This document shows, piece after piece, positions 13,801-45,280 of a DNA stretch of 64,000 bases. The position numbers were made by a program, and so were the translations under genes. This DNA comes from a bacterium (GTDB lineage: Bacteria; Patescibacteriota; Minisyncoccia; Phycocordibacterales; Phycocordibacteraceae): contig JBBCGK010000001.1 of the NCBI GenBank assembly GCA_037200965.1, forward strand, positions 672,001 to 736,000. Reading direction: 5' to 3'. Each line of letters opens with the position of its first letter. Position 1 is the stretch's first letter. The notes beneath the pieces are model-generated. The model was not told the origin of the DNA, made no database searches, and saw only the letters and a program-made list of their open reading frames with translations.

Positions 13801-13807
13801 TCCATGG

Positions 13808-26743: not shown

Positions 26744-26779
26744 ACGTAAATGATTACAATTCTAAGGTTGATAGGGGGG

Positions 26780-26965
26780 CTAGGAGCCCGGGAGAAAGCG
26801 GCGGCGGATCTTGTTGGAGACGGCAAGATTCACCACGCGGCGTTTCCCCATGGTCTTAGAGCCCGATTCCTTCGCGTTGAAATGGTTCTGGCCGGGCTTG
26901 CGGGCAAGGACCTTGCCGGTACGCGTGACGCGCAGGCGCTTCTGGTATGACTTGTTGGTTTTCAT
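26780..26965 (-). CDS. rpmI: 50S ribosomal protein L35
   Basis: 61 aa, [23 protein letters not shown]... Confidence 0.9.
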
Positions 26966-27534
26966 GGTTGTGGGTTTTCCGGTTTCTCTTTCGCGCTTTT
27001 CTCCTGCTTTCCCTGCGCTTCCTTGTCGCGCTCGATGACGCCCGCGAATCCCTTGGGACTTCTCGCGACGGGCTCCGCTATCTTGTACGCGTACGGGATG
27101 AGGAGCAGGAATTTCTCGAGGCGGGCCTTAAGAAAGGCCTCTTCCATTCCTTTATAGCGTCCCTTGAGGAAGAGCTCGGCCCGGACCCGGTGTCCTTCGG
27201 CAAGCCATTCGGCCGCCTTCTTGGCCTTGAGGCGCATGTCGTTGTCCCCGGTCCCGACCTTGATCTGGACCTCCTTGGTTTCCGACACCTTGGCCTTGGC
27301 CCGCGCTTGGCTCTCTTTCTTGCTGCGCTCGTACTCGAATTTACCATAATCCATCACTTTCGCAACGGGCGGGGTCGCGAGGGGCGATATCTCGATGAGG
27401 TCGAGCCCCGCGGCTTCGGCGGCCCGAAGCGCCTCGTCAAGCGTGATGACGCCGAGGTTCTCGCCCTGTGCGCCAATGACGCGCAGCTCGGGTGCGCGTA
27501 TCTCACGGTTGATGCGGGCTCGTTCGGTGCTCAA
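26962..27534 (-). CDS. infC: translation initiation factor IF-3
   Basis: [62 protein letters not shown]: conserved IF3 N and C domains; canonical infC-rpmI-rplT order. Confidence 0.9.
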
Positions 27535-27633
27535 AGCGGTGTTCCACCGACTCTAGCACGAACGAGGCCGTACCTGCAAGGAAATTCAGGCGGCATACCT
27601 TGTTCTTTCCGGATTATGGGTTAAGGTAATCGC

Positions 27634-28761: not shown

Positions 28762-28830
28762 GGATACAAGTGTGGGTATACAAAGAATGCGCGGCCATAC
28801 GCCGCGCATTCTTTAGTATCCGAGCTATTT

Positions 28831-29130
28831 CTATTGCGCTGCCTGCCCGTTCGTTACGGTCGTGGTAGCGGCCGTTTCCACGTTCACGCTGAAGTCGTGA
28901 AGGATGGCGGCGAGATCGGCGAGGTCCTGACTGCAAGCCTCCTTCTTTGCAGGCGTTCCGTCGCAGTCTTCCCTGATCTGGTCGCGCTGGGCGGCGATGT
29001 TGTGCTTGCCGCTTTCAAGCACGGTGGCGAGGTCGTTTCTGGTGCTGATCCAGAAATAAAGCGCCACTACGAGAAGCACGGCGAGAACTCCGGCGACTAT
29101 CCAGGCGGTTGTTGCGTCTTGTCGGTCCAT
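28831..29130 (-). CDS. small membrane-anchored hypothetical protein
   Basis: N-terminal TM (AWIVAGVLAVLLVVALYFWI). Confidence 0.35.
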   Translation of the reverse strand: MDRQDATTAWIVAGVLAVLLVVALYFWISTRNDLATVLESGKHNIAAQRDQIREDCDGTPAKKEACSQDLADLAAILHDFSVNVETAATTTVTNGQAAQ

Positions 29131-29252
29131 ATGAAGGATAAGGTAAGGGTTACTTGGGTCCGGTAATACTCACCAGCCTAGCATGCCGCCCGGCCGGTGA
29201 AGGGTTCATGAAGCGCTGTACAGGCGATCCGGCCGCGTGCTTAACTGGATGC

Positions 29253-29654
29253 ATGCATCTTCGTACGGGCGCGTTTCCCCTCCTTCTCCTTCGCTACACC
29301 TATGTCGCGTTCTTGTCGGTCATGAGCATCGATAAGCTGCTTCACTTCAATGTCGTCGATGCGTGGGAGCGGTTCGCCGGGCCGGTGGTGCATGCGATTC
29401 TTCCGGTAAGCACGGTCGCGATCGTCTCCATCGAGGGAGTCGTCGAGATCGCCATCATCGCCCTCCTCCTTACCAGGTGGTACCGCATCGGCGCGCTCGT
29501 TCTCTTCCTCGCCATCATCCCGGTCTGGATCGATCTCATGATTCTCGGTTTCTACGATCTCGCGCTTCACGATCTCGTCGTTTCCGCGGGCGCCATCGCG
29601 CTCGTCCTCCTTCCTCCTCCGGAGGAGAAGCCTCCGCTTGTTCAGGCGGCATAA
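29253..29654 (+). CDS. small membrane protein (possibly DoxX-like)
   Basis: 3-4 TM helices; the start codon is uncertain. Confidence 0.4.
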   Translation: MHLRTGAFPLLLLRYTYVAFLSVMSIDKLLHFNVVDAWERFAGPVVHAILPVSTVAIVSIEGVVEIAIIALLLTRWYRIGALVLFLAIIPVWIDLMILGFYDLALHDLVVSAGAIALVLLPPPEEKPPLVQAA

Positions 29655-29710
29655 GGTTCACCGTGCGTTCACGGCCGAAGACGCACCATGGGTGGCCTAT
29701 ACTTAGAGCT

Positions 29711-30964
29711 ATGCGAAGAAACTATAGTATCGCGATCGTCATCCTTGCCGTCGTCGTTATCGGCGGTTATTTCACGTACCAATACCTCAAGCAAAAGCCT
29801 CCGGCGTTCCTCATAGAACTCCTCACGAAGACCAGGCCTCCTCCGCCCCTGCCCGCGGGCGACGCCGCGCCCCTGTCGGTATCCGAAGGATTTTCCGCGA
29901 CCATCTTCTCGCGCGCGGTGCCGGGCGCCCGCGTCATGATCCGCGACCCGAAGGGAACAATGCTCGTTTCCGAGACTTCGCAGGGAAGAGTGGTCGCGCT
30001 TCCCGATCCCGATGCCGACGGAAAGGCCGATAAGGTTGTGACCATGCTTGAGCAGCTCGATCAGCCGCACGGCCTCGCGGTTGTCTGTCCGGACACGGGG
30101 AACGCGAGCGCCGACCAGGGCGCGTGCAGGCTGTATGTCGCCGAGACCGGCAGCCTGAAATCCTATGCGTACGACGCCGATACCTATACGGCAAGTGATC
30201 CGGTTTCGGTCGCGGCTTTTCCGACCGGCAGCGGCCACTTCACGCGCACCATCCTTCCGGGTGCCGACGGGAAGAGCCTCTTTGTCTCGGTCGGCTCGTC
30301 CTGCAACGTCTGCATCGAGACGAATCCGCTCCGGGCGACCATCCAGAAGCTCGATCTCGCGACGGGGAAGATGGCGGTATTCGCGAAAGGGCTCCGGAAT
30401 TCCGTCTTCATGGCCCTTAATCCGGTCTCGGGCGAGCTGTGGGCGACCGACAACGGCCGCGACGTGATCGGCGACGACATCCCGCCGGACGACGTGAACA
30501 TCGTGCGCGAAGGCGGCGACTACGGATGGCCCCTCTGCTACGGACAGAATGTCCATGACACCGACTTCGATACCAAGCAATATCTTGTCGATCCGTGCGC
30601 GGGCAAAATCCCGTCGCATATAGAGCTTCCCGCGCATTCTGCAGCGCTTGGTCTCGCGTTCGTGCCGGAAGAAGGATGGCCTGATGGCTGGGGCAACGAT
30701 CTACTTGTCGCATTCCACGGCTCCTGGAACCGCTCGATCCCCACGGGCTACAAGGTTGTCCGCATCGATCTTGATGACAAGGGTAACGAAATCGGTTCTC
30801 TGCAGGATTTCGTCACCGGCTTCCTCCCCGCGAGTTCCCACGATACCGATGATGCTATCGGAAGGCCCGTCGGACTTCTCGCCGAGCCCGGCGGCGTGGT
30901 CTATGTCTCAGACGACCGTGCGGGCGCGGTTTATCGCGTGGCGCGTACGGAAGAGGCGAGATAG
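29711..30964 (+). CDS. PQQ-dependent sugar dehydrogenase (soluble aldose/sorbosone dehydrogenase family), membrane-anchored
   Basis: N-terminal TM followed by beta-propeller blocks (PHGLAV, NGRDVIGDDIPPDDVN, GDYGWPLCYGQ). Confidence 0.7.
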   Translation: MRRNYSIAIVILAVVVIGGYFTYQYLKQKPPAFLIELLTKTRPPPPLPAGDAAPLSVSEGFSATIFSRAVPGARVMIRDPKGTMLVSETSQGRVVALPDPDADGKADKVVTMLEQLDQPHGLAVVCPDTGNASADQGACRLYVAETGSLKSYAYDADTYTASDPVSVAAFPTGSGHFTRTILPGADGKSLFVSVGSSCNVCIETNPLRATIQKLDLATGKMAVFAKGLRNSVFMALNPVSGELWATDNGRDVIGDDIPPDDVNIVREGGDYGWPLCYGQNVHDTDFDTKQYLVDPCAGKIPSHIELPAHSAALGLAFVPEEGWPDGWGNDLLVAFHGSWNRSIPTGYKVVRIDLDDKGNEIGSLQDFVTGFLPASSHDTDDAIGRPVGLLAEPGGVVYVSDDRAGAVYRVARTEEAR

Positions 30965-30974
30965 GATTTCCTTA

Positions 30975-31529
30975 GTGATCGAATATACGCTTCGGGAAAG
31001 CAATCAGGCCCGCGCCGTCCGTATTACCGTCCGCGCGGACGGCAGCGTATCCGTCACCAAGCCGGTACGGGTTTCGCTCAGATTGGCAGAAAAGTTCGTG
31101 GAAGAAAAACAGGAATGGATAGAGAAAACACGGGAACGCTTCGCGAAGAGGAGGGCAAACGGGAAGGACCGTGTGGTACTCCCGAAGCTGCGGCGGGGCA
31201 CGAGCACGCGCCGCGAAGCCGTACGAACCATCCGCACGCTTATCGGAGAGCGCCTCGCGCACTTCAACCGGGAATACGGATACAAGGTCGGCACGATATC
31301 GATACGGGATCAAAAGACGCGCTGGGGAAGCTGCTCGCTAAAAGGGAACTTAAGTTTCAACTATCGCCTCCTGTACCTTCCGCCGACCCACCGCGACTAC
31401 GTCATCGTGCACGAGCTCTGCCACATTAAAGAACACAACCACTCTAAAGCGTTTTGGCTCCTCGTCGGGCGGACGATTCCGGATGCCCGGGCAATTCGCA
31501 GGGAGTTGCGGTCGGGGTATTCGCTCTAG
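30975..31529 (+). CDS. YgjP-like metal-dependent hydrolase (DUF45/M48-like); GTG start
   Basis: HELCHIKEHNHSKAFW motif characteristic of YgjP/SprT-like proteins. Confidence 0.65.
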   Translation: MIEYTLRESNQARAVRITVRADGSVSVTKPVRVSLRLAEKFVEEKQEWIEKTRERFAKRRANGKDRVVLPKLRRGTSTRREAVRTIRTLIGERLAHFNREYGYKVGTISIRDQKTRWGSCSLKGNLSFNYRLLYLPPTHRDYVIVHELCHIKEHNHSKAFWLLVGRTIPDARAIRRELRSGYSL

Positions 31530-31533
31530 GTAC

Positions 31534-31827
31534 TTAGACGAGCTGAACCTTTTTCCCGAACGCTTCGGCGATCCGCCCGAGCGTATCGACCGTGATGCCG
31601 GTCTCGCCGCTTTCGATACGGGCGATGACCGACTGGGGCATGCCTGCTTTCTCGGCGACCGCCTTCTGGGTGAGGCGCTGGCTGCCGCGCAGGGCCGCAA
31701 TCTGTTTTGCGATGCTCAGCCGCACCGCCTCCTCGTTATAGCCGCGGCGGAAGGCCGCTTTCTTCGAGGACTTTCTAAACACGTCGTCGAACGAATAGAG
31801 TTTTATCGTTTTCGGGTTCCTTTTCAT
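31534..31827 (-). CDS. higA: XRE-family HTH antitoxin (HigA-like)
   Basis: LRGSQRLTQKAVAEKAGMPQSVIARIESGE helix-turn-helix; immediately downstream of a Gp49-like toxin gene. Confidence 0.65.
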   Translation of the reverse strand: MKRNPKTIKLYSFDDVFRKSSKKAAFRRGYNEEAVRLSIAKQIAALRGSQRLTQKAVAEKAGMPQSVIARIESGETGITVDTLGRIAEAFGKKVQLV

Positions 31828-31830
31828 ATG

Positions 31831-32139
31831 CTACGGTTTCTTTAGTTGTTTCCAGATTTTTTCCGCATACTCGATTTCCGCTTTCGGGGTCTTGTCGGTC
31901 TTCTTCCTGAATCCCCGTATGAAATAGATGCTGTTCGCGATGAGTACGTACGTAATGCGGTGATGGCCGGAGATAAGTTCGCGTACGGCCCGCCGCAACT
32001 GCTTCGTGTTCGGAATTTGTAGTTCTCCCGCGCGCATCGCGTCGATGTCCGCCGCGATAGCTCCCTGTTCTCCGGCGGCAAGCCCTTCGACATACGTTCT
32101 TGCGGCTTCGAGAAAGTACACGTCGTACCGGTCGCTCAT
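31831..32139 (-). CDS. higB: Gp49-like (DUF891) RelE/HigB-family toxin
   Basis: ITYVLIANSIYFIRGFRKKTDKTPKAEIEYAEKIWKQL resembles Gp49/HigB; a 3-nt gap separates it from the antitoxin. Confidence 0.55.
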   Translation of the reverse strand: MSDRYDVYFLEAARTYVEGLAAGEQGAIAADIDAMRAGELQIPNTKQLRRAVRELISGHHRITYVLIANSIYFIRGFRKKTDKTPKAEIEYAEKIWKQLKKP

Positions 32140-32247
32140 ACGGAACGATTATCTTATAACGGCCTTCGGCAGCCAAGACAAATATAGCAGACTTGCTATA
32201 GTCCCGTCAACCTTGGGGATAGCGGAAAAGAGGCTACCATATTCCGT

Positions 32248-33396
32248 ATGGAAGGCGTTTCATACTGGCTCGACCGGCCCTATAGCCCGCGACCCGCGCT
32301 GTCTTCGGATACCCAGGCCGATGTCGTCGTTATCGGCGGCGGCATCACGGGCGTCTCCGCCGCGTATCACGCGGTTGAGAACGGCTTCAAGACGATTCTC
32401 GTCGAGAAGGATGCAATCGCGTCGGGTTCCGCGGGGAAGAACGGCGGGATGGTGGTCGGAGAGCTGCACCTCGATCTCTGCGAGCTGGCGGATGCCTTTG
32501 GTGAGCCGGAAGCCGTCGAGCTGTGGAAAGCCGCCCGCGGCACCCGCGACTATGTCTTCTCGCTCGTGCGGAAGCACCGTATCGACTGCGACCTGGAACA
32601 ACCCGGGACCCTGTATCTCGGGATAGCTGCCGATAGCCGGAAGAAGTTAGAGCGCGAGCATGCGTACAGGACGCGAAACGGCTTCGACTGTGCGCTTGAA
32701 GAACCCGGTACGCAGTTCAAAGAAAGCGCGATCGGCGAGGTCCTGTATATCCCGGAAGAGGGGACGCTCCATCCGGTGAAGTTCGTTCGGGGACTTGCGG
32801 ATATCGCGGAAGCGCGGGGGCTTCGTATCTTTGAAGGCACGCCCGCGCTCCGTTATGACGCGCATTCCGTCGCGACGCCCCGCGGCACGATCAGCGCGGG
32901 CAAAGTGATTCTCGCCACCGAAAGCGCGCTTCCCGATCTCCGGAAGGAAGAGGGACGGATTATCCGTGAGATAGCGCTCGTGACGGAGCCGCTCTCCGAA
33001 GAGGCGACAGTCCGGATGGACGTGAAGCGCAGGGCGATGTTCTGGGGAACGGACGACGAGATAAACGGCAGGTGGATCGGAGACAGATTGTTCCTCAACG
33101 GGGATACGGCGCTCGAGCCTTCGGCGGATGATTTCGAGCGCGATAAGCGGAAGATACTCGATACGTTTCTCGGATATTTCCCGCAACTCGACAGGAGCGA
33201 GCTTCGCTTCTCGCACGAATGGAGCGGCCTGCTGCTCTATCCGGCCCACTATCACCCGCTCATCCTCGAGCATAATGGCTATTACAAAGTCTTCGGACAG
33301 AACGGCAATGGCCTCACAAACGGCATCATGACCGGAAAAATGATCGCGGACTCGTTCCTCGGGAAGGAGATTCCGGAGGTATACCGGACGCTATAA
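32248..33396 (+). CDS. FAD-dependent oxidoreductase (DAO family)
   Basis: VVVIGGGITGVSAAYHA dinucleotide-binding motif; 382 aa. Confidence 0.8.
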   Translation: MEGVSYWLDRPYSPRPALSSDTQADVVVIGGGITGVSAAYHAVENGFKTILVEKDAIASGSAGKNGGMVVGELHLDLCELADAFGEPEAVELWKAARGTRDYVFSLVRKHRIDCDLEQPGTLYLGIAADSRKKLEREHAYRTRNGFDCALEEPGTQFKESAIGEVLYIPEEGTLHPVKFVRGLADIAEARGLRIFEGTPALRYDAHSVATPRGTISAGKVILATESALPDLRKEEGRIIREIALVTEPLSEEATVRMDVKRRAMFWGTDDEINGRWIGDRLFLNGDTALEPSADDFERDKRKILDTFLGYFPQLDRSELRFSHEWSGLLLYPAHYHPLILEHNGYYKVFGQNGNGLTNGIMTGKMIADSFLGKEIPEVYRTL

Positions 33397-33430
33397 ACGG
33401 GAGACTTATTGCCAGGGTATACTTTCAGCC

Positions 33431-34648
33431 ATGGCTAGCCGGAAAACCAAAGTATTCATTTCCATGCCCTTCACTGGCAAGACGTTTGAGAATTTAAGCA
33501 GGGAGCGCGAGGATTTGCATGCGCTTGCGGCAACCTATGATTTGGAACTTCCGGAGCAGTTCATCGGGTATCAATTCGCAGAAGACTTTAAGACCAAGGA
33601 CTACGATCCGTCATTTGTTCTCGCCAAAGATAAAAAGTACATAAAAGAATCCGATATTGTTGTAGCCGATTTCTCGTCTCCTTCTATCGGCACCGATTGC
33701 GAAACTACTATCGCAAAGGAACTCTATGACAAAAAGATTATCGGCATCGTTCCGGACGTGAATAAGCGGAAGCACGCATGGCTACGCTTTTATTGCGACG
33801 ACTTCGTATCTTCGGTCGAGGAGGCGTTCGAGCTCATACGGGCGAAATACGCGAACCATAATCATCCGGAGCATGTCGACAAGCGCCAGTACGACTCTAT
33901 TGCCGTCGAGTACCAGCTTGTCGAAGCCACGCCTATCCAGAAGTACGTGTACGACCCGAACGCGCGGGAGCTTCTCGGGGAATACGGCACCGGCAAGAAA
34001 GTCGCCGTGTTCCATTGCGCGAGCGGGCATCGGGCGCGTATAGCCAAAGAAGCGGGCGCGAAGGAGGTTATCGGGATCGATACTTCCTTTAGGCAGATAA
34101 GTCTCGCTCGTGAGATAGAGCTTTCTAAGCCGCAGGGCATTGAATATCGGGTCCTGAATGCTTATTCGAAGGATTTCCCCGATGAATTTCCAAAGGAATA
34201 TAATGGAAGTCTTGACGTCGTACTCGGGTTTTTCCTCATAGATCACGCGCAGACGGAAACAGAGCTCCAAAAGCTTGCGGAAAACGTTTACTCGAGCCTT
34301 GCGCCCGGAGGAGTGTTTATAGCCATGCTCGACGACTCGGAGGCGCGTACCCCGACTGACCCGAAGTACGGTGTCGCGATAGAGCCTTTAGAAGGGAAGG
34401 GGGATGCGAGCCAGCGCCGCATAGTCATCTATCAGAACATGAAGGACGGCGAGGATCGGGCCGTACTCCATTTCTTCAATTTCGAATGGACACGAGCCAC
34501 GGTACAGAGGGTATTTTCCGAAGCCGGGTTCGCTGCCGAATTCAAGGACCCGTTCGTGGCACCGGAAGGGAAAGAGCGTCTGGGGGAGGACTTCTGGAGG
34601 AAATACGAGGAAGATCCGGACAACGTGCTGTTTATCTGCAGGAAATAA
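33431..34648 (+). CDS. fusion protein: nucleoside 2-deoxyribosyltransferase-like N-domain plus a class I SAM methyltransferase C-domain
   Basis: N-terminus KVFISMPFTGK...DIVVADFSSPSIGTDCETTIAKELYDKKIIGIV has the NDT-like Rossmannoid pattern. C-terminus KVAVFHCASGHRARIAKEAGAKEVIGIDTS...LDVVLGFFLIDHA...LAPGGVFIAM matches MTase motifs I-IV. AT-richer than the host. Confidence 0.55.
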   Translation: MASRKTKVFISMPFTGKTFENLSREREDLHALAATYDLELPEQFIGYQFAEDFKTKDYDPSFVLAKDKKYIKESDIVVADFSSPSIGTDCETTIAKELYDKKIIGIVPDVNKRKHAWLRFYCDDFVSSVEEAFELIRAKYANHNHPEHVDKRQYDSIAVEYQLVEATPIQKYVYDPNARELLGEYGTGKKVAVFHCASGHRARIAKEAGAKEVIGIDTSFRQISLAREIELSKPQGIEYRVLNAYSKDFPDEFPKEYNGSLDVVLGFFLIDHAQTETELQKLAENVYSSLAPGGVFIAMLDDSEARTPTDPKYGVAIEPLEGKGDASQRRIVIYQNMKDGEDRAVLHFFNFEWTRATVQRVFSEAGFAAEFKDPFVAPEGKERLGEDFWRKYEEDPDNVLFICRK

Positions 34649-34684
34649 TTTCTTCGAGCAGGATTTGAAGTTCTTAAGACAGAT

Positions 34685-35191
34685 TTACTTCAAAATAAAT
34701 TCCTCCCGCAACAGCGCATAGCCGACAGCATCGACGTATTCTCCCGTCTCGCGGTTTTCCCATTCCTTCTTGTGTCGCGCTTCCTGTCGGAAGCCGAGGG
34801 ACTCGAATACTTTTCGCATAGCGGCGTTATCCTCCCTGGTCGTCGCGTATATCCTGCGGATTTTATCGTAGCGGCCGAAGATGTAGGCAATGCCTTCTTT
34901 AAGCAGCTTCGTTCCGACTCCTTTCCCGCGCGCGTCTTTGTCTACGCAGAGAGTAAACGAAGGCGCGTCGCTGCCGGAGTTCTTTATGTTATCGAAATGG
35001 ATGAATCCGAGCAGCTTGCTTTCGTCGTAGCATACGAGCGTCTGAGCCGTCTCGCTTGAGAAATAATTCTCATCCCGGATTGCAAGGCCCCGTTCGTCGA
35101 TTATCGGATCCAGAAAATACTCCCAGCGATTCGAAGTCAGGAGATGATGAATGGCAGGAAGATCTCCGGGTCTGAAAAGATGTATTTCCAT
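34685..35191 (-). CDS. GNAT family N-acetyltransferase
   Basis: CVDKDARGKGVGTKLL acetyl-CoA-binding motif. Confidence 0.8.
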   Translation of the reverse strand: MEIHLFRPGDLPAIHHLLTSNRWEYFLDPIIDERGLAIRDENYFSSETAQTLVCYDESKLLGFIHFDNIKNSGSDAPSFTLCVDKDARGKGVGTKLLKEGIAYIFGRYDKIRRIYATTREDNAAMRKVFESLGFRQEARHKKEWENRETGEYVDAVGYALLREEFILK

Positions 35192-35364
35192 GGAATAAAT
35201 AGTACCACTTCCCGCTTCTAGAAAGCGCTACGCTTTTCTCCCTCGACGATCATTACACTTCTTGTCCATCGTGGACTCTTGGTGGGGAAGGCGTGAATAA
35301 AAACCAATCCCCCTCCTTAAGTGAGAGAGCTTTTCCTAATCTAAAGGCGAGATATACTAGACGC

Positions 35365-35820
35365 ATGACAACGCAACAGTATTCAATCCGCATCAACGCG
35401 CCGAAGGAAAAGGTTTGGAACACAATGCTCGGTCAGGACACGTATCGGGAATGGACGAGCGCCTTTAACGAAGGCGGACGTTTTGAGGGCAGCTGGGACC
35501 AGGGTTCCAAGATTCTTTTCCTTGGACCGGATCCTCTGACCGGAAAGGAGGGGGGTATGGTTTCCCGCATCAGGGAGAACAGACCGTATGAGTTCATCTC
35601 TATCGAGCACCTCGGTATTATGAAAGACGGTGTCGAAGATACGACGAGCGAAGAGGCAAAAAAGTGGGCTCCTGCATACGAAAACTATACTTTCACCGAA
35701 AAGGACGGTGTCACCGAAGTGTCCGTAGATATCGACATCGCTGAGGAGTTTGCCGATATGTTTAAAGAGGCGTGGCCGAAGGGTCTTGCAAAGCTTAAAG
35801 AAATCTCCGAAAAGCCCTAG
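35365..35820 (+). CDS. SRPBCC-fold protein (AHSA1/activator of Hsp90 ATPase-like)
   Basis: ~150 aa; pattern typical of the SRPBCC ligand-binding fold. The start is set at the internal MTTQQYS. Confidence 0.5.
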   Translation: MTTQQYSIRINAPKEKVWNTMLGQDTYREWTSAFNEGGRFEGSWDQGSKILFLGPDPLTGKEGGMVSRIRENRPYEFISIEHLGIMKDGVEDTTSEEAKKWAPAYENYTFTEKDGVTEVSVDIDIAEEFADMFKEAWPKGLAKLKEISEKP

Positions 35821-35838
35821 GTATGTATCTCTAAAAGA

Positions 35839-35864
35839 AAACAGCCCGCTTAGGTGGGCTGTTT
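35839..35864 (+). terminator. intrinsic terminator (AAACAGCCC gcttaggt GGGCTGTTT, then TCT)
   Basis: 9-bp stem followed by a U-run, 20 nt after the stop. Confidence 0.55.
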
Positions 35865-35868
35865 TCTA

Positions 35869-36022
35869 TCTAGCGGGATTGGTTATCCCAGGGTTAGAAC
35901 CTCGCTGATGCAAAGAAACTTCTATATTTCCTAAGTGGTAGGCATAATGAGTACACAAAAGCCAATACGTGCCTACAGGGTACCCAGAATTAGGTCGAGA
36001 GGTTAAAACCTCCTCCTACAGA
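35869..36022. repeat. copy 1 of a ~150-bp repeated structured element
   Basis: Shares with copy 2 (38788-38985) the blocks CTAGCGGG, AGAACCTCGCTGAT, ATATTTCCT, a ~50-nt block AATGAGyAyACAAAAGCCAATACGTGCyTAyAGGGTrCCCArAAyTAGG, and GGTTArAACCTCC. It also contains the internal hairpin GTAGGCA...TGCCTAC. Confidence 0.8.
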
Positions 36023-37309
36023 TTAGGATGCAATTACCTTGTAGATTCGGTTATCAGCCACTGTGTCCGTGTTCTCTAGGTCAACCATTTCAAATACATA
36101 GCCATACTCCTTGAGTGAGTCTTCGAGCAGTGCCAGCGCGTCTTTGTCCTTATTTGAGAAACCGATATAGACCACGCCGTTTGGCGCAAGATATTCCTTT
36201 GTATTCTTAAGAAACTTAACCAGTACGCTATCTTCGTTACTCTGCGTCTTGAATGCATGGGCAAGGCTTGTATCCGTCTTCTTAACCTTCTCATTATGGA
36301 AGGGCGGATTGAAGAAGATGATATCGAAGTGATTTTTATAGATTGAAGGTATTTTTTCGAATAGATTGCTCTCGAAAGCCACCCCCTTATCTTTTTGAGG
36401 AGAATTCTCAAGGTTGTATTTAGCGTTCTGAACGGCAGTTGAATTGATATCGCTCATCACCACTTCTTTTGCGCCTACATCAAGCGCCACGAGGCCCATC
36501 GCTCCATGACCACATGCAATATCGAGAACTTTCTTATCCTTCGATACTCCACGAACAAGCTTCGCGAACAGTTTTGAGGAACGGAATCGATTAGAAGGAT
36601 AGACGCCAGGGAAGACGGTCATTACGAGCTTCTCGAACAGGATTTTATAGTTGCTCGTGTTTTTGAGTACATGCTTATAGATCTCATTCGAGGTGAGAGC
36701 CGGATAGTATATCGGCGGGTAATAGTTTTTCTTTACAAGAGCGTCGAGGTACTTCAGCACGATGGAAGCCGCTTCCTCGCCATCCTTTGCATAGAAGAGG
36801 GGAGTGGAATCAGGATGCATCAAGCCTTCTGCGGCGAATGAGTCTATAAGCGCCTTGTATCGAGTGAAGTAATCACCCACAAGAACAATAGGCTTATTGA
36901 TTTCTCCAAGAATATTCAATATATGGATCTCTAGAATTTCGTGGAATGTACCTACTGCTCCCGGTAGCGCGATGAATGCATCCCCAAGCTCGATAAGTCT
37001 GCGCTGGCGCTCGTAGTGATCCGCATATCCTTCATAATCGGAGAAATAGGGACTTGGCTTAGAATCGCGATTTCCAAGGGCAACGCCAAACAGGTTGCCG
37101 CCTGCTTCCACCGTAGCCTTTGCTACCACGTCCATGAGGCCAGAAGGGCGTCCGCCGTTATTAATGCCGTATCCAGCCTCGCTTATAAGCCGAGCCACGG
37201 CCTTGGCGTCATGAAGATAAGACTCGTTCGTAGTTTCCATGCCGCTGGAGAATATGGTCACGCGAGGCGTATATCCCGCCTCGGTTTTCTTGCTCGGCAT
37301 ATTTGTCAT
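36023..37309 (-). CDS. fusion protein: LOG-family (TIGR00730, lysine-decarboxylase-like) nucleotide-binding N-domain plus an NPPF-motif small-domain SAM methyltransferase (RsmC/HemK-like) C-domain
   Basis: N-terminus TIFSSG...GINNGGRPSGLMDVVAKATVEAGGNLFGVAL...ALPGAVGTFHEILE gives the LOG signature. C-terminus VLDIACGHGAMGL...DIIFFNPPFH carries MTase motifs I and IV (NPPF). AT-rich. Confidence 0.6.
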   Translation of the reverse strand: MTNMPSKKTEAGYTPRVTIFSSGMETTNESYLHDAKAVARLISEAGYGINNGGRPSGLMDVVAKATVEAGGNLFGVALGNRDSKPSPYFSDYEGYADHYERQRRLIELGDAFIALPGAVGTFHEILEIHILNILGEINKPIVLVGDYFTRYKALIDSFAAEGLMHPDSTPLFYAKDGEEAASIVLKYLDALVKKNYYPPIYYPALTSNEIYKHVLKNTSNYKILFEKLVMTVFPGVYPSNRFRSSKLFAKLVRGVSKDKKVLDIACGHGAMGLVALDVGAKEVVMSDINSTAVQNAKYNLENSPQKDKGVAFESNLFEKIPSIYKNHFDIIFFNPPFHNEKVKKTDTSLAHAFKTQSNEDSVLVKFLKNTKEYLAPNGVVYIGFSNKDKDALALLEDSLKEYGYVFEMVDLENTDTVADNRIYKVIAS

Positions 37310-37397
37310 ATGCGAGAAGTATTGTATAAATGCTATTCACTGTCAAGTGATGTCAGACAGTACTTGACAACAAGTCAGGCAGGAATATACTGACCAT

Positions 37398-38159
37398 ATG
37401 GAACTCAACAAATCCCTTGAAGCTTTGGGCTTCTCATCAAAGGAGATTCAGGTTTATTTGGCGGTGATAAAGCTCGGTAAGACTACTCCAGCCGAAGTGG
37501 CGAAGATTACGAAAATCGGCCGCCCCACGGTCTATAATCTTGTTAAGAGTCTTATATCGAAGGGTGTGATAGCGGAGGATAAGGCCGATGCTGTGCTGCA
37601 CATCGTCGCACTGCCTCCCGAAGGCCTCCGAGCTACTATCGAACGGTCCAAGGTCGAGCTTTCAAAGAAAGAAGAACTTGTTGATGCGGCTATCGAAGAG
37701 CTTGGACTCATCCACTCAGGCGAGACCTATCCGGTGCCGCGCCTCCGTTTCGTGGAGGAGAACGAGCTACACGATTACCTTTTTCAGAATGCGGTTAAGT
37801 GGAATGAAAGCGTCCTCTCTAAGGACGGAATCTGGTACGGCTTCCAAGACCATAGTTTCGTAGAGAATTATGGAGATTGGATTGATTGGACGGTAAAGAA
37901 ACTCAAGGGAACGAAGTACAAGGTTCAACTATTCAGCAACGCTTCGAAAATTGAGGAACAGTTAGAAGGGAAGATCCCAGAGCGCTCAATCAAGTTCCTA
38001 AAGAGCTCTCGCTTTACGGCAACTACCTGGGTGGTAGGGGATTACCTCGTGATGATCTCAACCTCGAAGGCCCCGTTCTATTTGGTGGAGATTCACGATG
38101 CTCTTATGGCAGAGAATATGCGCGAAGTGTTTAAGAATATGTGGGAGATAAATAAATAA
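37398..38159 (+). CDS. TrmB-family transcriptional regulator
   Basis: The N-terminus ALGFSSKEIQVYLAVIKLGKTTPAEVAKITKIGRPTVYNLVKSLISKGV is a typical TrmB winged helix. Confidence 0.65.
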   Translation: MELNKSLEALGFSSKEIQVYLAVIKLGKTTPAEVAKITKIGRPTVYNLVKSLISKGVIAEDKADAVLHIVALPPEGLRATIERSKVELSKKEELVDAAIEELGLIHSGETYPVPRLRFVEENELHDYLFQNAVKWNESVLSKDGIWYGFQDHSFVENYGDWIDWTVKKLKGTKYKVQLFSNASKIEEQLEGKIPERSIKFLKSSRFTATTWVVGDYLVMISTSKAPFYLVEIHDALMAENMREVFKNMWEINK

Positions 38160-38164
38160 GAATT

Positions 38165-38725
38165 ATGGATCGATACCTTGATCAGTGGGCGCGAATTAAC
38201 CGCTGGCATAGAAAAGTCAATACTTTTTATGAAGGAGAGAGAAGTGTTCTTGAGGATAATGAAAGATTGGATATGGTCCGAACTTTTTTCATAGAATGCT
38301 TTCATTTAAAGGATTGGATCAAAGCTGACTTTCCGAATCTTTCAGTAGCTACCGAAAGAATATTTGATCGAGTAGAAGGCGAGGAATGTTTCAAAATTTG
38401 TGCAGACCTAGCGAATGCATCGAAACACGTGGATCTTAATAAGGCAGTCAGAAAAGATAAAGAAACTAAAATCGGTACTCAAGGAATTACAATCATGGTT
38501 GATCCTATTAAATGGGATTCAGACCCGAAGGATTATTTGCCGCCCGTGTGTAAATACCGATGGGACATCATAGCGTCAAGGAAGAAGTTTGATGTAAAAG
38601 AGCTAGCCGATGAGTGTATTGAGAGTTGGAAGAAGTTTATGCGCAAGAATGGACTATCTATAGAGATTGTTGCTCGATTGTCCATTCCAATAGATGGAAC
38701 ATCTTTTGATGCCAAAGCGTCTTAG
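38165..38725 (+). CDS. hypothetical protein (186 aa), AT-rich
   Basis: Starts 5 nt after the TrmB stop; no recognisable domain. Confidence 0.45.
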   Translation: MDRYLDQWARINRWHRKVNTFYEGERSVLEDNERLDMVRTFFIECFHLKDWIKADFPNLSVATERIFDRVEGEECFKICADLANASKHVDLNKAVRKDKETKIGTQGITIMVDPIKWDSDPKDYLPPVCKYRWDIIASRKKFDVKELADECIESWKKFMRKNGLSIEIVARLSIPIDGTSFDAKAS

Positions 38726-38787
38726 TACCGAAAGTAACAGTGATACTCCAGTCGTTTAAGAGATTACGGGAGAGGTGGAGGAAAGTT

Positions 38788-38985
38788 CCTAGCGGGTGCT
38801 TTTATGAAACTAGGTGGAATTGGATATCCGAGATAAGAACCTCGCTGATACTAAACAGCTCCTCATATTTCCTTCGTGTAGTGGATGACTGGGTATCAAA
38901 ATGAGCATACAAAAGCCAATACGTGCTTATAGGGTGCCCAAAACTAGGCGGAGGGGTTAGAACCTCCCATATTTTGGTAGTATTA
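38788..38985. repeat. copy 2 of the ~150-bp repeated element
   Basis: See copy 1; ~80 percent identity over the conserved blocks. Confidence 0.8.
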
Positions 38986-38990
38986 TCTAC

Positions 38991-39497
38991 ATGAAGATCG
39001 AATGGCTCGGAAAACGAATAGCAGTGGTTGGAGTAAGCGCATCAGGAAAATCAACTTTTGCGCGCAGACTTGCTACTAAGACTGGTCTGCCCCTGACGCA
39101 CATTGATGCCGTGATGTGGAAGCCGGGATGGGATTATATTGGCGATGAAGAAACAGTCCGCCAGCTCAAAGAAATCAGCAAGCAGGATGAATGGATCATC
39201 GAAGGATTCATCGATAAGAATGCTCTCGAAGCAGTTCTGACTCGTGCCGAATCAATAATCTATCTCGACTATCCGCGATACATACCTGCGTGGAGATACA
39301 TAAAACGATGGTTTAAGCATCGAAAGAATCCGCGCCCAGAATTGGAGGGCAGTCCAGAGAAATTCAGCTTTGAATTTCTGAAGCGGGTATGGGATAAGAA
39401 GGAAGTCTATCGGCTAAACGAATTTATTAAGAAAATGCCTGATACAAGCAAGATTCTGAGGCTCAAGTTGCCGAAGGAAGCAAATACTTTTCTATGA
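38991..39497 (+). CDS. P-loop NTPase/kinase (AAA_33 / topology-modulation-like)
   Basis: IAVVGVSASGKSTFARRLA Walker A; ~170 aa small kinase fold. Confidence 0.55.
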   Translation: MKIEWLGKRIAVVGVSASGKSTFARRLATKTGLPLTHIDAVMWKPGWDYIGDEETVRQLKEISKQDEWIIEGFIDKNALEAVLTRAESIIYLDYPRYIPAWRYIKRWFKHRKNPRPELEGSPEKFSFEFLKRVWDKKEVYRLNEFIKKMPDTSKILRLKLPKEANTFL

Positions 39498-39509
39498 GAG
39501 TAGTTACAT

Positions 39510-40028
39510 ATGGCTAGACTTATTATTCTCAATGGACCTCCTGGTGTAGGCAAATCTACGATTGCTGCACGTCTGCATAAGGATATTTCAAATTCGATAC
39601 TTCTGGATATAGATGAGATTCGTCGCTCCATTCCAAATTATAAAGAGCAACGTAAGGAAAGTCTGATTCTGGCGTATCAGGAGGCAATGCGGACCATAGA
39701 AGACTGTTTAGCTAAAGATCAGACCGTTATTATAGATAAGGTTGTTTCGGACTCAGATACACTCGATTCTTTTGTTGAGGCAGGGAATAAACAGGGTGTC
39801 GTAATAAATGAGATTCTCCTATTTGCAGACAAGGAATCAGTACAGAAGCGAGCAGACGAGCGTGGTTACAAACCAGGAAGTTTACTTACCCGTGAGCGAG
39901 TAGGAGACATGTGGGATCAAGTGAGTGTACTCAGAAGAAGTAGGAATAACGCTGTTGTTATGGATACGACTCATTTAAATCTTGAAGAAGTGTACAAAAA
40001 TGTAAGAGGAATAATCGGGCAAGTATAA
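39510..40028 (+). CDS. P-loop NTPase/kinase (AAA_33 / zeta-toxin-like fold)
   Basis: IILNGPPGVGKSTIAARL Walker A; ~170 aa. Confidence 0.55.
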   Translation: MARLIILNGPPGVGKSTIAARLHKDISNSILLDIDEIRRSIPNYKEQRKESLILAYQEAMRTIEDCLAKDQTVIIDKVVSDSDTLDSFVEAGNKQGVVINEILLFADKESVQKRADERGYKPGSLLTRERVGDMWDQVSVLRRSRNNAVVMDTTHLNLEEVYKNVRGIIGQV

Positions 40029-40154
40029 CCCGCCGGTAGGGGTGGAAGAGAAGTCCGGAATTTCTGAGAAGTTTCTGCAGAAAGTTAGAACCCCCAATCT
40101 GTTAAGACGCGCCAACACGAATGGTTACTTAACTCGGCCTTTCGTGAAATGATG

Positions 40155-40566
40155 TGGAGGTGGGGAGGTTGAACTCCCGTCCGACCTGCGCTTGAGAGCG
40201 AGTCTACGGCGCGTAGTTCCGATTAGGGTTTAAGAGAGGATGCGAGGAAACGGAACGAAACCATTCCCCTCCGATCCCGTTATCTAAGCCGCGGGCCGGG
40301 AGAGCCGCGAACCGATCGCACAGAAGATTCCGCCCGCTGGCCCGGCTGTGCGCACCCGGGACCAGGGACGTCGCTTAGGCGAGGTGAGCCGAAGCTCGAA
40401 CCTTATGCGTAAGCGAACGCGAAGTTCCCTGCGGTAAAGTAAGGAGACTTCACGCCTACAACAGTTTTGTTTGCAGGTAGAGTTTCCCGCCAGATTAAAG
40501 TGATGGGCGGGAGTGCACTGCGCCGCACGTCTCTCAAGGTACAGGCCGTCAAAGCCGGTCACCCCC
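40155..40566 (-). ncRNA. ssrA: tmRNA (ssrA)
   Basis: The minus strand begins GGGGGUGACCGGCUUUGACGG, matching the tmRNA 5' consensus GGGGxUGAxxxGGxUUCGACGG. It ends GGACGGGAGUUCAACCUCCCCACCUCCA, matching E. coli ...GGACGCGGGUUCAACUCCCGCCAGCUCCA. The acceptor stem GGGGGUG/CACCUCC pairs. An internal ORF GCA AAC AAA ... GCA UAA encodes the tag ANKTVVGVKSPYFTAGNFAFAYA. It lies directly downstream of smpB. Confidence 0.7.
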
Positions 40567-40604: not shown

Positions 40605-41048
40605 TTACCGATTCTTCAGTATACGTTCGGCGTCGCGTTTCGCGTCCTTTTTCTTGAGATCCTCCCGTTTGTCCTTCTTCCCCTTGCCGCGGACGATCGC
40701 AACGCGCGCCTTGATATACCGCTTACTACTATACACCGAAAGTGGCACTACTGTCAATCCCTTCTTCGATTCGGCATCGGCCAGTTGCGCTAGTTCGGGC
40801 TTCGTCATAAGAAGACGGCGGTTGCGTTCCGGATCGTAGCTCTCCGGAGTGTTCTTGGCCTGATAGGGAGGGATGGTTGCGCCGACCAGATAGGCTTCTC
40901 CGCCGCGGACGAGCACCCGCGCTCCTTCGAGGCTCCCGAGCTTCCCGCGAAGCGCCTTCGCCTCGCCGCCCGAGAGCTCGAGGCCCGCATCGAATGTCTC
41001 AATGATCTCGTATTTGAGGCCCGCTTTTTTGTTTTCGATAAGATTCAT
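40605..41048 (-). CDS. smpB: SsrA-binding protein SmpB
   Basis: 147 aa; KYEIIETFDAGLELSGGEAKALR...GKGKKDKRED; canonical SmpB. Confidence 0.9.
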   Translation of the reverse strand: MNLIENKKAGLKYEIIETFDAGLELSGGEAKALRGKLGSLEGARVLVRGGEAYLVGATIPPYQAKNTPESYDPERNRRLLMTKPELAQLADAESKKGLTVVPLSVYSSKRYIKARVAIVRGKGKKDKREDLKKKDAKRDAERILKNR

Positions 41049-41878
41049 GTCGTGAGAAGGTCGAGAATCTCTTCGCGCCTTGCCATGACGTCATCGTAGC
41101 CCATGTAGAACGCTTCGGCGACCTTATGCGGATCGCGCGTCGTAAGGCCGACGGGAAGCGGCCGCGAGGGCGAGAGGTGAAGTCCCCGCACGCTGTTCGG
41201 GAGAACGGGGGTGTCGATGCGGTCCGTGTAATCGAGAAGCACGCCTTCAAGCGGCTCGCGCTGCCAGTACGCGTAGAGCCGGAAGAGCAGCTTCGCCCAC
41301 CGTTTCTTCGGCGTGAGATTGGTGATGAGCAGAATGCGCGTCGCGCCTTCCGCAACAGCCTTCTCAATGAGGGCCTGGGTGCCAAGCCCGATGCCGCCGT
41401 CCATATATAGATGGCTCCCGAGAGCTATGTGCCGGTGATAAAACAGCGGAATCGCCATCGCGGCGCGGAGCACCTCGTGGGGATCGAGCCAAGTATCGTT
41501 TCCGATAAAGCGCGTCGCCCCGCTTGCCTCGTCGGTCACGGGGACGAAATAACGCGACGGCGAGCGCGCGAGGCGGTCCGTATCGAGCGGAATGTACTGC
41601 TTGATAACCGTGTCGACCAGATAGTCGACATTGAACCTCGGGAAAGGGAAGTAGCGGATAAAGTTAGGGGAAGGAATGAATTTTATCCATGCCCGCTCGC
41701 CCTCATCGTACTGGCCGGAGAGATAGTACATGAGGGATCCCGTGCTTCCCGAGGAAGCGAGCGCTATGTCTGGCGCGCCAAGTCCGAGTTCTTTCCCGAG
41801 TGCGGTCAGTGCGCCCGCGGCATACGCGCACTTCATGCCTCCGCCGGAGGCGATAACCGCGGTTTTCTCCTCGCGCAT
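41045..41878 (-). CDS. patatin-like phospholipase
   Basis: Oxyanion hole GGGMKCAYAAG and GxSxG nucleophile (ASSGSTG); overlaps the smpB start by 4 nt. Confidence 0.75.
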   Translation of the reverse strand: MREEKTAVIASGGGMKCAYAAGALTALGKELGLGAPDIALASSGSTGSLMYYLSGQYDEGERAWIKFIPSPNFIRYFPFPRFNVDYLVDTVIKQYIPLDTDRLARSPSRYFVPVTDEASGATRFIGNDTWLDPHEVLRAAMAIPLFYHRHIALGSHLYMDGGIGLGTQALIEKAVAEGATRILLITNLTPKKRWAKLLFRLYAYWQREPLEGVLLDYTDRIDTPVLPNSVRGLHLSPSRPLPVGLTTRDPHKVAEAFYMGYDDVMARREEILDLLTT

Positions 41879-44383: not shown

Positions 44384-44455
44384 CCACCCATAGCTCAATG
44401 GTAGAGCGATCGACTTATATTCGATTGGCTCCAGGTTCGAGTCCTGGTGGGTGGA
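44384..44455 (+). tRNA. tRNA-Ile with anticodon UAU (reads AUA)
   Basis: Manually folded: acceptor CCACCCA/TGGGTGG, D-arm GCTC-AATGGTA-GAGC, anticodon stem ATCGA/TCGAT with loop CTTATAT (U33, anticodon TAT, A37), T-arm CCAGG-TTCGAGT-CCTGG, discriminator A. 72 nt. Confidence 0.6.
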
Positions 44456-45280
44456 CTACCGAGGGAATATATCAACGAGTTCGCCCGAACTATAAAAGTC
44501 CGCGGCAAGACCGCCGAAGCTATACGAAACACCGAGAATATCGATGGCCGCGCCGCCTACCTGCGGATTCGCGTTCGGGGTCGAATGCGCGAAGCCGATG
44601 TTGTAAAGCGTCGAGACGACCGCGGGGTTTCCTTCGATAGGGAAGCCCGCCTTCCTCCACTGCGCTTCCACCTCCTTTATATAGAGTCCCGCATAGAGAT
44701 AGCTCCAATAGTGGTCGTGCTGGTCGGTCATGCGCGCGAAGCGTTCGCTTTCTACGTCGGTCGTCCGGAAGTCGAGCGCGTGCCCGAACTCAGGCCCCGG
44801 ATAGTACGGCGAGGCCGGATCCTTCAGATTATTCTCCACTTGGATCGCCGTGTCTTCTTTCATCCCCATCACGCCCCAGGAAAACTGTGTCTGAGAACCC
44901 AGGATCTTGAGCGGATAGAAGAATTGCTTATAAAACTCCCGTTCCGTGAAGAAAAGCCGCAGCTGTTCGGCGACCAAATTCGCGGCGATGAGCCGCGCGG
45001 GAACGCCCGAGTCGGCAGCCGCCCGGTCGAGCGCCGCGGTATCTTTCCGAAGCGCCGCCTCGAGCACCTGCCATTCTTCGGTCTTCTGCCAGGGCGTGCC
45101 ACGCGGATCGCTAGGCGCGAAGTCGGTCGATGTCGCGGAACCGATGAACGCTTCGCGCTGGAGGTCGACGATGCCGCTCGTGTTGGTGAGTCCGAACCGG
45201 ACCGCGAAGTATCCGACGACGAGGAAGAAGCCGATCGCGGCGAATATATAAATGACGATCGAGACGACTTTCTTAAGCAT
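44456..45280 (-). CDS. hypothetical membrane-anchored protein (274 aa)
   Basis: N-terminal TM (VVSIVIYIFAAIGFFLVVGYFAV) followed by a large soluble domain. Confidence 0.5.
   Translation of the reverse strand: MLKKVVSIVIYIFAAIGFFLVVGYFAVRFGLTNTSGIVDLQREAFIGSATSTDFAPSDPRGTPWQKTEEWQVLEAALRKDTAALDRAAADSGVPARLIAANLVAEQLRLFFTEREFYKQFFYPLKILGSQTQFSWGVMGMKEDTAIQVENNLKDPASPYYPGPEFGHALDFRTTDVESERFARMTDQHDHYWSYLYAGLYIKEVEAQWRKAGFPIEGNPAVVSTLYNIGFAHSTPNANPQVGGAAIDILGVSYSFGGLAADFYSSGELVDIFPR

Follow-up and report, generated by a model that had tools for sequence, protein, structure and literature searches.

The window analysed here is a stretch of 64,000 nucleotides from a genome of the Patescibacteriota (contig JBBCGK010000001.1, positions 672,001 to 736,000), and the feature in question is an AT-rich block at 33431-40151 that lies against the 3' end of ssrA, the gene of the transfer-messenger RNA (tmRNA). 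Between ssrA and infC there is probably a variable locus of long standing, of which this block would be the part nearest to ssrA and the least ameliorated one. It would consist of tandem cassettes without integrase genes, each composed of a trailer element (Trl), cargo genes and a repeat element (Rep), that have accreted where ssrA meets its trailer.

The GC content of the block is 46.7%, versus 59.4% elsewhere in the window (window mean, 57%). The seven 1-kb segments covering 33001-40000 have GC fractions of 0.41-0.53, with z values from -2.2 to -5.9 relative to the 53 segments located outside the two low-GC blocks of the window (mean 0.594 +/- 0.031; the second block is described below). The symmetrised dinucleotide signature of 33431-40151 differs from that of the rest of the window by delta* = 95, whereas 6.7-kb chunks drawn at random from the rest give 32 +/- 7 and at most 48. 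Both ARAGORN and Rfam place ssrA on the minus strand, and its 3' end, ...CACCTCCAC, points into the low-GC block, which stops there. An earlier note on this DNA had described a low-GC island running from about 33.4 kb to an abutting tmRNA 3' end, and both the composition and the position agree with that description. Eight accessory open reading frames (ORFs) make up the block, seven with domains other than those of recombinases and one without any domain, and the largest intergenic gap is 265 nt. The features of the block and its anchors are the following, with the GC content at third codon positions (GC3) given for the genes.

33431-34648, plus strand: MT1, a ToxA-like small-molecule N-methyltransferase preceded by an alpha/beta N-terminal domain; GC3 0.62
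34685-35191, minus strand: GNAT acetyltransferase (PF00583, E = 1.4e-15); GC3 0.61
35365-35820, plus strand: AHSA1/SRPBCC-fold protein of 151 aa (PF08327, marginal); GC3 0.57
35844-35873: hairpin with a T-run after Rep1
35874-36015, minus strand: Rep1, 10 nt after the SLOG-MT stop codon and inside the stretch shared with the related locus L024
36023-37309, minus strand: SLOG-MT, a fusion of a SLOG/LOG-like domain with an MTS (NPPF-type) methyltransferase (PF03641, PF18306, PF05175); GC3 0.52
37310-37397, both strands: promoter-like region in the divergent gap between SLOG-MT and TrmB (consensus matches only)
37398-38159, plus strand: TrmB-family helix-turn-helix regulator, divergent from SLOG-MT (PF01978); GC3 0.575
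38165-38725, plus strand: hyp186, an orphan of 186 aa; GC3 0.36
38760-38814, minus strand: dTrl2, an internally deleted second Trl copy directly after the end of Rep2
38815-38969, minus strand: Rep2
38991-39497, plus strand: kin1, P-loop kinase-like, with a match to the 'DNA topology modulation'/FlaR-like family that stays below the curated cutoff (NCBIfam NF005994, E = 1.7e-35); GC3 0.47
39510-40028, plus strand: kin2, an AAA_33/zeta-toxin-like P-loop kinase (Pfam); GC3 0.32, the minimum of the block
40029-40151, minus strand: Trl1, the ssrA trailer element of about 120 nt
40152/40154-40566, minus strand: ssrA (Rfam RF00023, 95.3 bits, full-length match; also ARAGORN)
40605-41048, minus strand: smpB, the conserved anchor upstream of ssrA (PF01668)

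Flanking host genes have GC3 values of 0.67-0.80 on both sides of the block. Within it, GC3 drops towards ssrA, from 0.62 in MT1, which would be the oldest part of the low-GC block, to 0.32 in kin2, and this fits the newest DNA being nearest to ssrA. Read in the orientation of ssrA, the array would run from ssrA and Trl1 through kin2 and kin1 to Rep2, then from dTrl2 through hyp186, TrmB and SLOG-MT to Rep1, and finally from a remnant of a Trl start to the SRPBCC, GNAT and MT1 genes.

Trl1 is homologous to the ca. 113-120 nt that follow ssrA in two related loci, L024 and L029, and to the stretch that follows a kin2 homolog, without an adjacent ssrA, in a third, L037 (L-numbers denote loci from genomes and metagenomes that were anchored on SmpB or on cargo proteins). 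Pairwise z values against shuffles are 8.5-11.8 for the window copy and 24-47 among the others, and the nhmmer E-values go from 1e-29 (window copy) to 3e-33 with a model built from the same four copies that it scored. Downstream of ssrA, three Kaiserbacteria loci (L002, L013 and L014) also have a partial Trl box (E = 6e-4). The gene next to Trl differs among the window, L024 and L029, and the order Rep-(gene)-kin2-Trl is common to the window and L037, with unrelated middle genes. An assignment of kin1 to a module conserved in L037 was rejected, the 175-aa gene found there being unrelated to it. The earlier note had pointed out that a motif of the repeats recurs between the last kinase gene and ssrA; the motif, GTTAGAACC, is indeed present there (40084-40092), but it is part of Trl1, a separate element, and not of a third, degenerate Rep copy, since 83 of 500 shuffles score as well.

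The best local block of dTrl2 against the Trl copies of L024, L029 and L037 is equalled in 1, 3 and 1 of 1000 dinucleotide shuffles, respectively, and its two collinear blocks in 3, 1, 0 and 0 of 500 shuffles against the trailers of the window, L024, L029 and L037. A second Trl copy follows Rep2, and the unit formed by ..TCCAC and Trl therefore brackets the kinase module. The junctions read as follows, the end of the preceding element being given before the start of the trailer.

Window, ssrA/Trl1: ..CCTCCAC, ATCATTTCACGAAAGG
L024 and L029, ssrA/Trl: ..CCTCCAC, ATGGTTTCATTAAAAGG
L037, junction with Trl: ..GCTCCAC, CTGGTTTCACAATTAG
Window, Rep2/dTrl2: ..ATTCCAC, CTAGTTTCATAAAAGC

In ssrA orientation the window thus holds three junctions at which Trl or a remnant of it follows another element, at 40152, 38814 and 35873. 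The third one is weak: it corresponds to the hairpin that flanks Rep1, for which 1 of 200 shuffles matches the L024 Trl as well, and which is possibly a remnant of the start of Trl. If 38815-40151 is removed, the order ssrA-Trl-(one gene)-TrmB-SLOG-MT-Rep remains, which is collinear with L029 (ssrA-Trl-108 aa-TrmB-SLOG-MT-RepA) and L024 (ssrA-Trl-101 aa-M78-TrmB-SLOG-MT-Rep), and these two loci would represent the empty site for the kinase module. Directly after the ssrA trailer, L024 carries a 101-aa gene that appears HigB-like by eye and an HTH_3-M78 gene.

The same arrangement can be considered from the point of view of homologous recombination acting without any site-specific enzyme. DNA imported from related cells of the Candidate Phyla Radiation (CPR) would then swap or extend the interval by means of the smpB-ssrA-Trl flank and of the Rep or infC-rplT flank, Rep and Trl representing only portable homology. 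A simple replacement, however, yields no tandem duplication of junction and trailer, and the sharp boundary at ..TCCAC in five junctions looks site-specific. Although Rep and Trl agree between genomes at 67-83% of positions over 113-180 nt, no recombinase was found, and cargo appears swapped between conserved elements (the unrelated 175-aa gene of L037 in the place of kin1, and the varying gene adjacent to Trl), an identity of 67-80% over less than 200 nt makes a poor substrate for RecA-type recombination, which counts against this explanation. We consider it unlikely.

The two repeats of about 150 bp reported in the earlier note are real; they are ca. 155 nt long and about 75-83% identical (35851-36013 versus 38790-38967), and there is no third copy in the window. 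Altogether six distinct Rep copies were found in four genomes (nhmmer E = 1e-47 to 1e-59): two in the window, one in L024, two in L029 that are 2.3 kb apart (L029A and L029B), and one in L037. They are mutually 67-80% identical, without a clearly closest pair. In ssrA orientation all of them begin with GGRGGTTCTAAY and finish with ..CCAATTCCAC or a close variant, Rep2 beginning with GGGAGGTTCTAACC and finishing with ..CCAATTCCAC. Rep1 and the copies of L024 and L029A are located on the 3' flank of SLOG-MT, 10 nt after its stop codon, and a hairpin with a T-run comes after these three copies and after L029B. The other three copies lie directly 5' of a gene, which is kin1 for Rep2, a 520-aa gene for L029B and the 175-aa gene for L037.

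It could also be the case that Rep does not mark an insertion boundary and is a functional element serving its neighbours, such as a small RNA, a 3' untranslated region, a leader or the gene of a tiny peptide. Conserved blocks are common to all six copies, the hairpin with its T-run is found after four of them, including L029B, which has no co-directional gene upstream, three copies are directly 5' of a gene, and a 19-codon ORF, MSTQKPIRAYRVP..., is intact in Rep1, Rep2 and L029A. The same ORF, however, retains only 9 codons in L024 and L029B, and the position relative to genes is inconsistent (3' flank in three copies, 5' flank in three). Neither Rep nor Trl matched Rfam at the gathering threshold, E <= 1 or E <= 10, single-sequence folds of Rep have z values of only -2.5 to +0.3, RNAalifold gave no support from covariation on either strand, the covariation term being positive (penalising), and no promoter-like site was found inside Rep. 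A structured RNA was accordingly rejected, and a functional role of Rep as such seems doubtful.

Several further observations concern Rep. The 19-codon ORF lies at 35947-36006 and 38901-38960 on the plus strand, as well as in L029 RepA, with the translations MSTQKPIRAYRVPRIRSRG, MSIQKPIRAYRVPKTRRRG and MSTRKPMRAYEVPKTRSGD, each ending in a stop codon that falls in the GGTTAGAACC box; about half of the differences between Rep1 and Rep2 sit at third codon positions of this ORF, and its shortening in L024 and L029B is due to a 1-nt deletion. Rep as a whole was rejected as a coding sequence, having stops in all frames and indels that are not multiples of 3. A derivation from a tmRNA or tRNA fragment, to which the T-arm- and acceptor-like appearance by eye of the start, GGAGGTTCTAAC.., and the end, ..TTCCAC, could point, was dropped, with no statistics and no acceptor-stem partner behind it. 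Pattern scans for Rep in viral contigs gave 0 matches. The GGTTAGAACC box, with up to one mismatch, occurs four times in the window, always on one strand, in intergenic DNA and inside the low-GC block; its bare count is at chance level (2.5 expected; 25 of 100 shuffles reach 4).

Cassettes of the block are shared with other genomes. The SLOG-MT fusion family comprises 24 full-length cluster representatives with 41-89% identity, and SLOG-MT is paired divergently with TrmB in every locus that was fetched. In L024, which carries the pair between ssrA and infC, and in L029, which begins in a 5'-truncated ssrA and has the pair with Rep 0.7 kb further on, TrmB, SLOG-MT and Rep are located 0.7-2 kb downstream of ssrA. 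Between L024 and the window the protein identity is 94.5% for TrmB and 88% for SLOG-MT, versus 69% for SmpB, 75% for FtsH and 79% for infC, and the nucleotide identity over 35860-38158, Rep1 included, is 80.6%, versus about 64-69% over aligned codons of housekeeping genes (66-72% in BLASTN; 68-79% at the protein level). The four-fold degenerate sites of TrmB and SLOG-MT are nevertheless only 44-49% identical (housekeeping genes, 31-41%), so that the sharing of this cassette is old, a recent transfer of it can be rejected, and the high protein identity mainly reflects constraint.

The same pair was found at loci linked to tRNA genes: in L033 it is flanked by tRNA-Ser(tga) and tRNA-Arg(gcg), and in L030 and L034 its immediate neighbours are tRNA genes. 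The slot bounded by tRNA-Ser(tga) and tRNA-Arg(gcg) is low in GC and contains Rep-X-kin2-Trl in L037. This is one tRNA-bounded hotspot occupied by different cassettes in two related genomes: MOSC, TrmB, SLOG-MT and two small genes in L033 (6456-10929), and ABM, Trl, the kin2 homolog, the 175-aa gene and Rep in L037 (4087-7059). Homologs of kin2, with at most 63% identity, were found in varied contexts within the Paceibacterota. MT1 belongs to a family of about 50 two-domain proteins, and its ortholog in L039 (83% identity; FtsH 79% and SmpB 67% identical between L039 and the window) is located 2.1 kb from ssrA, GSDH lying beyond it in the same way as in the window. In L027, from a CPR genome of 36% GC, the TrmB/SLOG-MT pair has an MT1 homolog (48% identity) and a second TrmB gene at a distance of 1.6 kb (9116-14981), a closeness which hints that the two methyltransferase fusions may work together rather than being unrelated cargo.

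These comparisons bear on the alternative that the region is ancestral and vertically inherited, with lineage-specific losses, its low GC being gene-specific (weak selection, low expression) and not a result of transfer. The corresponding interval of L039 contains MT1 and GSDH in unchanged order, TrmB, SLOG-MT and Rep keep their place in L024 and L029, and the shared cassette is heavily diverged at synonymous sites. Moreover, the GC3 of MT1 is about 0.16 below that of its host in both genomes (0.62 versus 0.78 in the window; 0.39 versus about 0.55 in L039), and MT1 has therefore tracked its host. On the other hand, kin2 and hyp186 have GC3 values of 0.32-0.36 in a genome at 0.67-0.80, the GC3 of SLOG-MT and TrmB moved just 0.04-0.11 between hosts that are ca. 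0.25 apart, cassettes are found at unrelated tRNA-linked loci in other lineages, the kinase module is bracketed by a duplicated junction plus trailer, and none of the eight block proteins, nor DAO, HigBA, YgjP or GSDH, is encoded in L001-L023. Purely vertical descent of the region appears improbable. The earlier note held that relatives with the same genes at the same place and with host-like composition would speak against an island; the genes were indeed found at the same place in L024, L029 and L039, but cargo common to relatives is always below the GC of its host. A recent single arrival of the block is not supported either, MT1 being common to L039, and TrmB, SLOG-MT and Rep to L024 and L029.

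By comparison with SmpB-anchored loci, the organism belongs to Candidatus Paceibacterota (CPR/Patescibacteria). The order FtsH-smpB-ssrA-[variable]-infC-rpmI-rplT constitutes a conserved frame in L001, L004, L006, L007, L014, L024 and the window, whose ssrA-infC distances are:

L007: 0.7 kb
L001: 1.95 kb
L006: 4.4 kb
L014: 4.7 kb
L004: ca. 8 kb
L024: 11.2 kb
Window (27553-40151): 12.6 kb

These arrangements support the view that a locus variable across the clade follows ssrA. The Cfa homolog is 0.46 kb past ssrA in the Kaiserbacteria locus L014 and 11.4 kb past it in the window; the variable interval is thus larger than 33431-40155 and extends to the left as far as 27553, so that the left boundary at 33431 proposed previously does not hold as a syntenic limit and the low-GC block is the ssrA-proximal part of the interval. 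The remainder of the ssrA-infC interval (27643-33396), with five annotated genes or gene pairs, has host-like GC and is listed here after the anchor that borders it:

26402-27552: infC-rpmI-rplT, the next conserved anchor, by synteny with relatives
27643-28758: Cfa, cyclopropane-fatty-acyl-phospholipid synthase, above the NCBIfam cutoff
29711-30964: GSDH
30975-31529: YgjP-like metallopeptidase
31534-32139, minus strand: HigB(Gp49)/HigA(HTH_3) toxin-antitoxin pair
32248-33396: DAO oxidoreductase

Fragments of the 3' end of ssrA were sought in 27553-40151 with its last 25-45 nt as query, by 25-mer matching with up to three mismatches, by blastn with a word size of 7, and by Smith-Waterman alignment of the last 45 nt against the 12.6 kb, with shuffles; none was found beyond chance. 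The partial ssrA 3'-end duplications at module boundaries for which the earlier note had suggested a search were thus not found, and the ca. 150-nt repeats were rejected as such duplications. The piece that is duplicated in the window is only ..TCCAC plus the trailer. Nothing above chance was obtained in the window, L024, L029 and L001, L039 alone being positive: within 300 nt downstream of ssrA (ca. 9530-9830) the 3' end of the gene recurs in part, once directly (21/27) and once inverted with 13 nt exactly matched, scores reached by 3 of 100 shuffles. This one relative thus shows partial copies that may be scars of ssrA-directed events. Similar inverted and direct copies, judged by eye, are located at 11074-11330 of L014, where copies of the Trl box flank the Cfa homolog on both sides. 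The copies in L039 and L014 could be old attachment (att) scars or an unrecognised small RNA.

A mechanism consistent with these data can be proposed. The point of entry for new cassettes would be where the ssrA 3' end meets the trailer, with a core of about YTCCAC/MTNNTTTCA, the substrate being a circular or exchanged form in which the end of Rep is joined to the start of Trl, mimicking the ssrA-end/Trl junction. Older cassettes would be displaced outward and the newest would be found nearest to ssrA, which would explain both the GC3 gradient and the duplicated junction and trailer. As the eight ORFs of the block include no recombinase, the enzyme would act in trans. The succession of insertions at one attachment site put forward in the earlier note is in keeping with the kinase module, which is bracketed by the duplicated junction and trailer and absent from the collinear L024 and L029; overall, the interpretation given in that note is partly supported. 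A broader proposal, tentative and somewhat doubtful, is that Rep and Trl are the two ends of an undescribed family of integrase-less cassettes in Paceibacterota, and that a recombinase acting in trans moves units of 1-3 kb between ssrA-linked and tRNA-linked hotspots across lineages. If this were true, it would amount to an integron-like trade of accessory genes for ultra-small genomes, or to one resembling that of cis-mobilizable elements (CIMEs).

A number of observations weigh against accretion at the ssrA/trailer junction. No recombinase was found among 20 further ORFs of the window either, in agreement with the previous statement that no integrase remains, and the sole transposase found in the window is an IS30-like gene located 18 kb from the block. 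Only about 16 of 24 bases agree between the attL-like and the attR-like cores of the window, dTrl2 is closer to the trailers of L024, L029 and L037 than to Trl1, and the other Rep copies (L024, L029A, L029B and L037) have no clear Trl after them. The divergence is old, with four-fold sites at 44-49% and equidistant Rep copies, and therefore part of the array could be ancestral and not inserted. The relatives are also distant, the nearest having 64-72% SmpB identity and none more than 72% in the scans of genomes and metagenomes (SmpB identities to Paceibacterota relatives are 45-72%). Three further contigs with identical SmpB are 99.95-100% identical to the window, and because all three carry the block with the whole array, no excised form, within-species empty site or polymorphism was seen in them.

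As for the cargo, matches in Pfam, NCBIfam and the PDB corroborate the gene content listed in the earlier note (methyltransferase fusions, GNAT, SRPBCC, TrmB and two kinases). The Rossmannoid label that it gave to two methyltransferase fusions is confirmed for SLOG-MT and only plausible for the N-terminus of MT1. The SLOG domain matches nucleotide phosphoribohydrolases of the LOG type (PDB 5its and others), and the methyltransferase half, in which an NPPF motif can be read, resembles enzymes of the RsmC/RsmD/PrmC type. The C-terminal half of MT1 resembles ToxA and other heterocycle N-methyltransferases. Its N-terminus has no match in Pfam; in the AlphaFold model, residues 6-139 show alternating strand and helix elements (pLDDT of the block about 59-94), so that a Rossmannoid fold of the N-terminal 140 residues is plausible. 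No match to hyp186 was found in Pfam, NCBIfam, PADLOC or the PDB. Sigma-70-like sites, as consensus matches only, are present in the SLOG-MT/TrmB gap at 37364-37391 on the plus strand (11/12) and at 37346-37318 on the minus strand (10/12). At the level of annotation, the cargo would be devoted to small-molecule modification of the nucleobase or nucleotide type under TrmB control, accompanied by small kinases. Membership of the cargo in defence systems was rejected, PADLOC giving generic methyltransferase and P-loop domain matches only. The cargo would be ordinary CPR accessory metabolism.

Some features of the surroundings are worth recording. The tag peptide given by ARAGORN for the window tmRNA, GPAGGIFCAIGSRLSRPAA (40403-40474, minus strand), looks miscalled; the frame that starts from the GCA at 40474 gives ANKTVVGVKSPYFTAGNFAFAYA followed by a stop, in agreement with the tags of relatives, such as ANKSVTSVKSPYSNVLGLAFATA in L039. 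The window (41045-41878, minus strand) and L039 (10727-11569) both have a patatin-like phospholipase gene squeezed in between smpB and FtsH, the two proteins being only 35% identical; it is absent from this position in L001 and L024. Upstream of FtsH, at 44384-44456, there is a tRNA-Ile(TAT/UAU) gene whose position is kept in L001, L014, L024 and L039, and whose UAU anticodon is an unusual means of reading AUA codons. The second low-GC block (54012-58866; GC 0.41-0.50; delta* 129 versus the rest) lies immediately past the 3' end of tRNA-Ser(gct) (tRNA at 54012-54101) and contains an EcoRI-type adenine methyltransferase gene (54156-55250), a GmrSD_N+HNH nuclease gene (55247-56362) and a 212-aa orphan, past which the IS30-like transposase gene (HTH_38 + rve) is found at 57934-58866. 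This second block resembles a defence islet next to a tRNA gene and is a parallel to the block at ssrA.

The gain and exchange of accessory genes in CPR/Patescibacteria, with genomes of ca. 1 Mb and few recognisable mobile elements, are poorly documented, and among the titles and abstracts obtained in searches on Patescibacteria or CPR with islands and tRNA or tmRNA, none described such islands. The locus supplies sequence handles for this question, in the form of two conserved boundary elements, a duplicated junction and a putative empty-site configuration. In addition, the SLOG-MT/TrmB pair and the MT1 family may point to an uncharacterised nucleobase- or nucleotide-modifying function, widespread among CPR bacteria.

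The ssrA gene is a classic site of islands (Williams 2003, as cited in PMC9580842). The array has in common with classical integrase-borne islands at tRNA and tmRNA genes its location on the 3' side of ssrA, its foreign composition, its accessory cargo and the repeated use of the site, but there is no integrase beside ssrA, no direct repeat of a 3' segment and no phage or conjugation gene; the units are very small and old, and cassettes are also found at tRNA-linked sites in other lineages. A parallel is given by the ssrA-linked genomic islands of Dehalococcoides (McMurdie et al. 2011, PMC3146451), which are tandem low-GC islands downstream of the single-copy ssrA of a streamlined genome. What defines their units are ssrA repeats of 20 bp and an integration module of six genes that includes the serine recombinase DsiB, and some units have no integration genes, being seemingly fixed or cis-mobilizable (PMC3146451). 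A streamlined genome, tandem low-GC units past ssrA, broken synteny and boundary repeats in ssrA orientation are thus shared features. Unlike in Dehalococcoides, no ssrA fragment is detectable in the window, the duplicated piece consisting of the trailer and the final 5-7 nt of ssrA, the ends of the units are a Rep of ca. 155 nt and a Trl of ca. 120 nt, there is no integration module of the DsiB type, and the units are 1.3-3 kb long.

CIMEs are att-flanked units without genes for recombination or transfer that become stacked by successive site-specific insertions, a process known as accretion (PMC5704250). In a similar manner, 38815-40151 lies between ..CCTCCAC/Trl1 and ..ATTCCAC/dTrl2 and encodes two kinases only; CIMEs, however, are defined through a known parental integrative and conjugative or integrative and mobilizable element and its integrase, and no such parent is known here. 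With integron arrays there is a likeness in the units of one to three genes, in the recurrent, imperfect non-coding element of ca. 60-180 nt between them, and in the recurrence of cassettes across arrays. Unlike integrons, the array has no IntI, attI or Pc, its Rep is without a conserved hairpin like that of attC, gene orientation is mixed, and the whole is anchored at ssrA. As far as can be told, the boundary elements Rep and Trl are undescribed. The array shares the logic of the known ssrA island arrays and differs from them in its boundary elements, in the missing ssrA repeat and integrase, and in the occurrence of its cassettes at tRNA-linked sites elsewhere.

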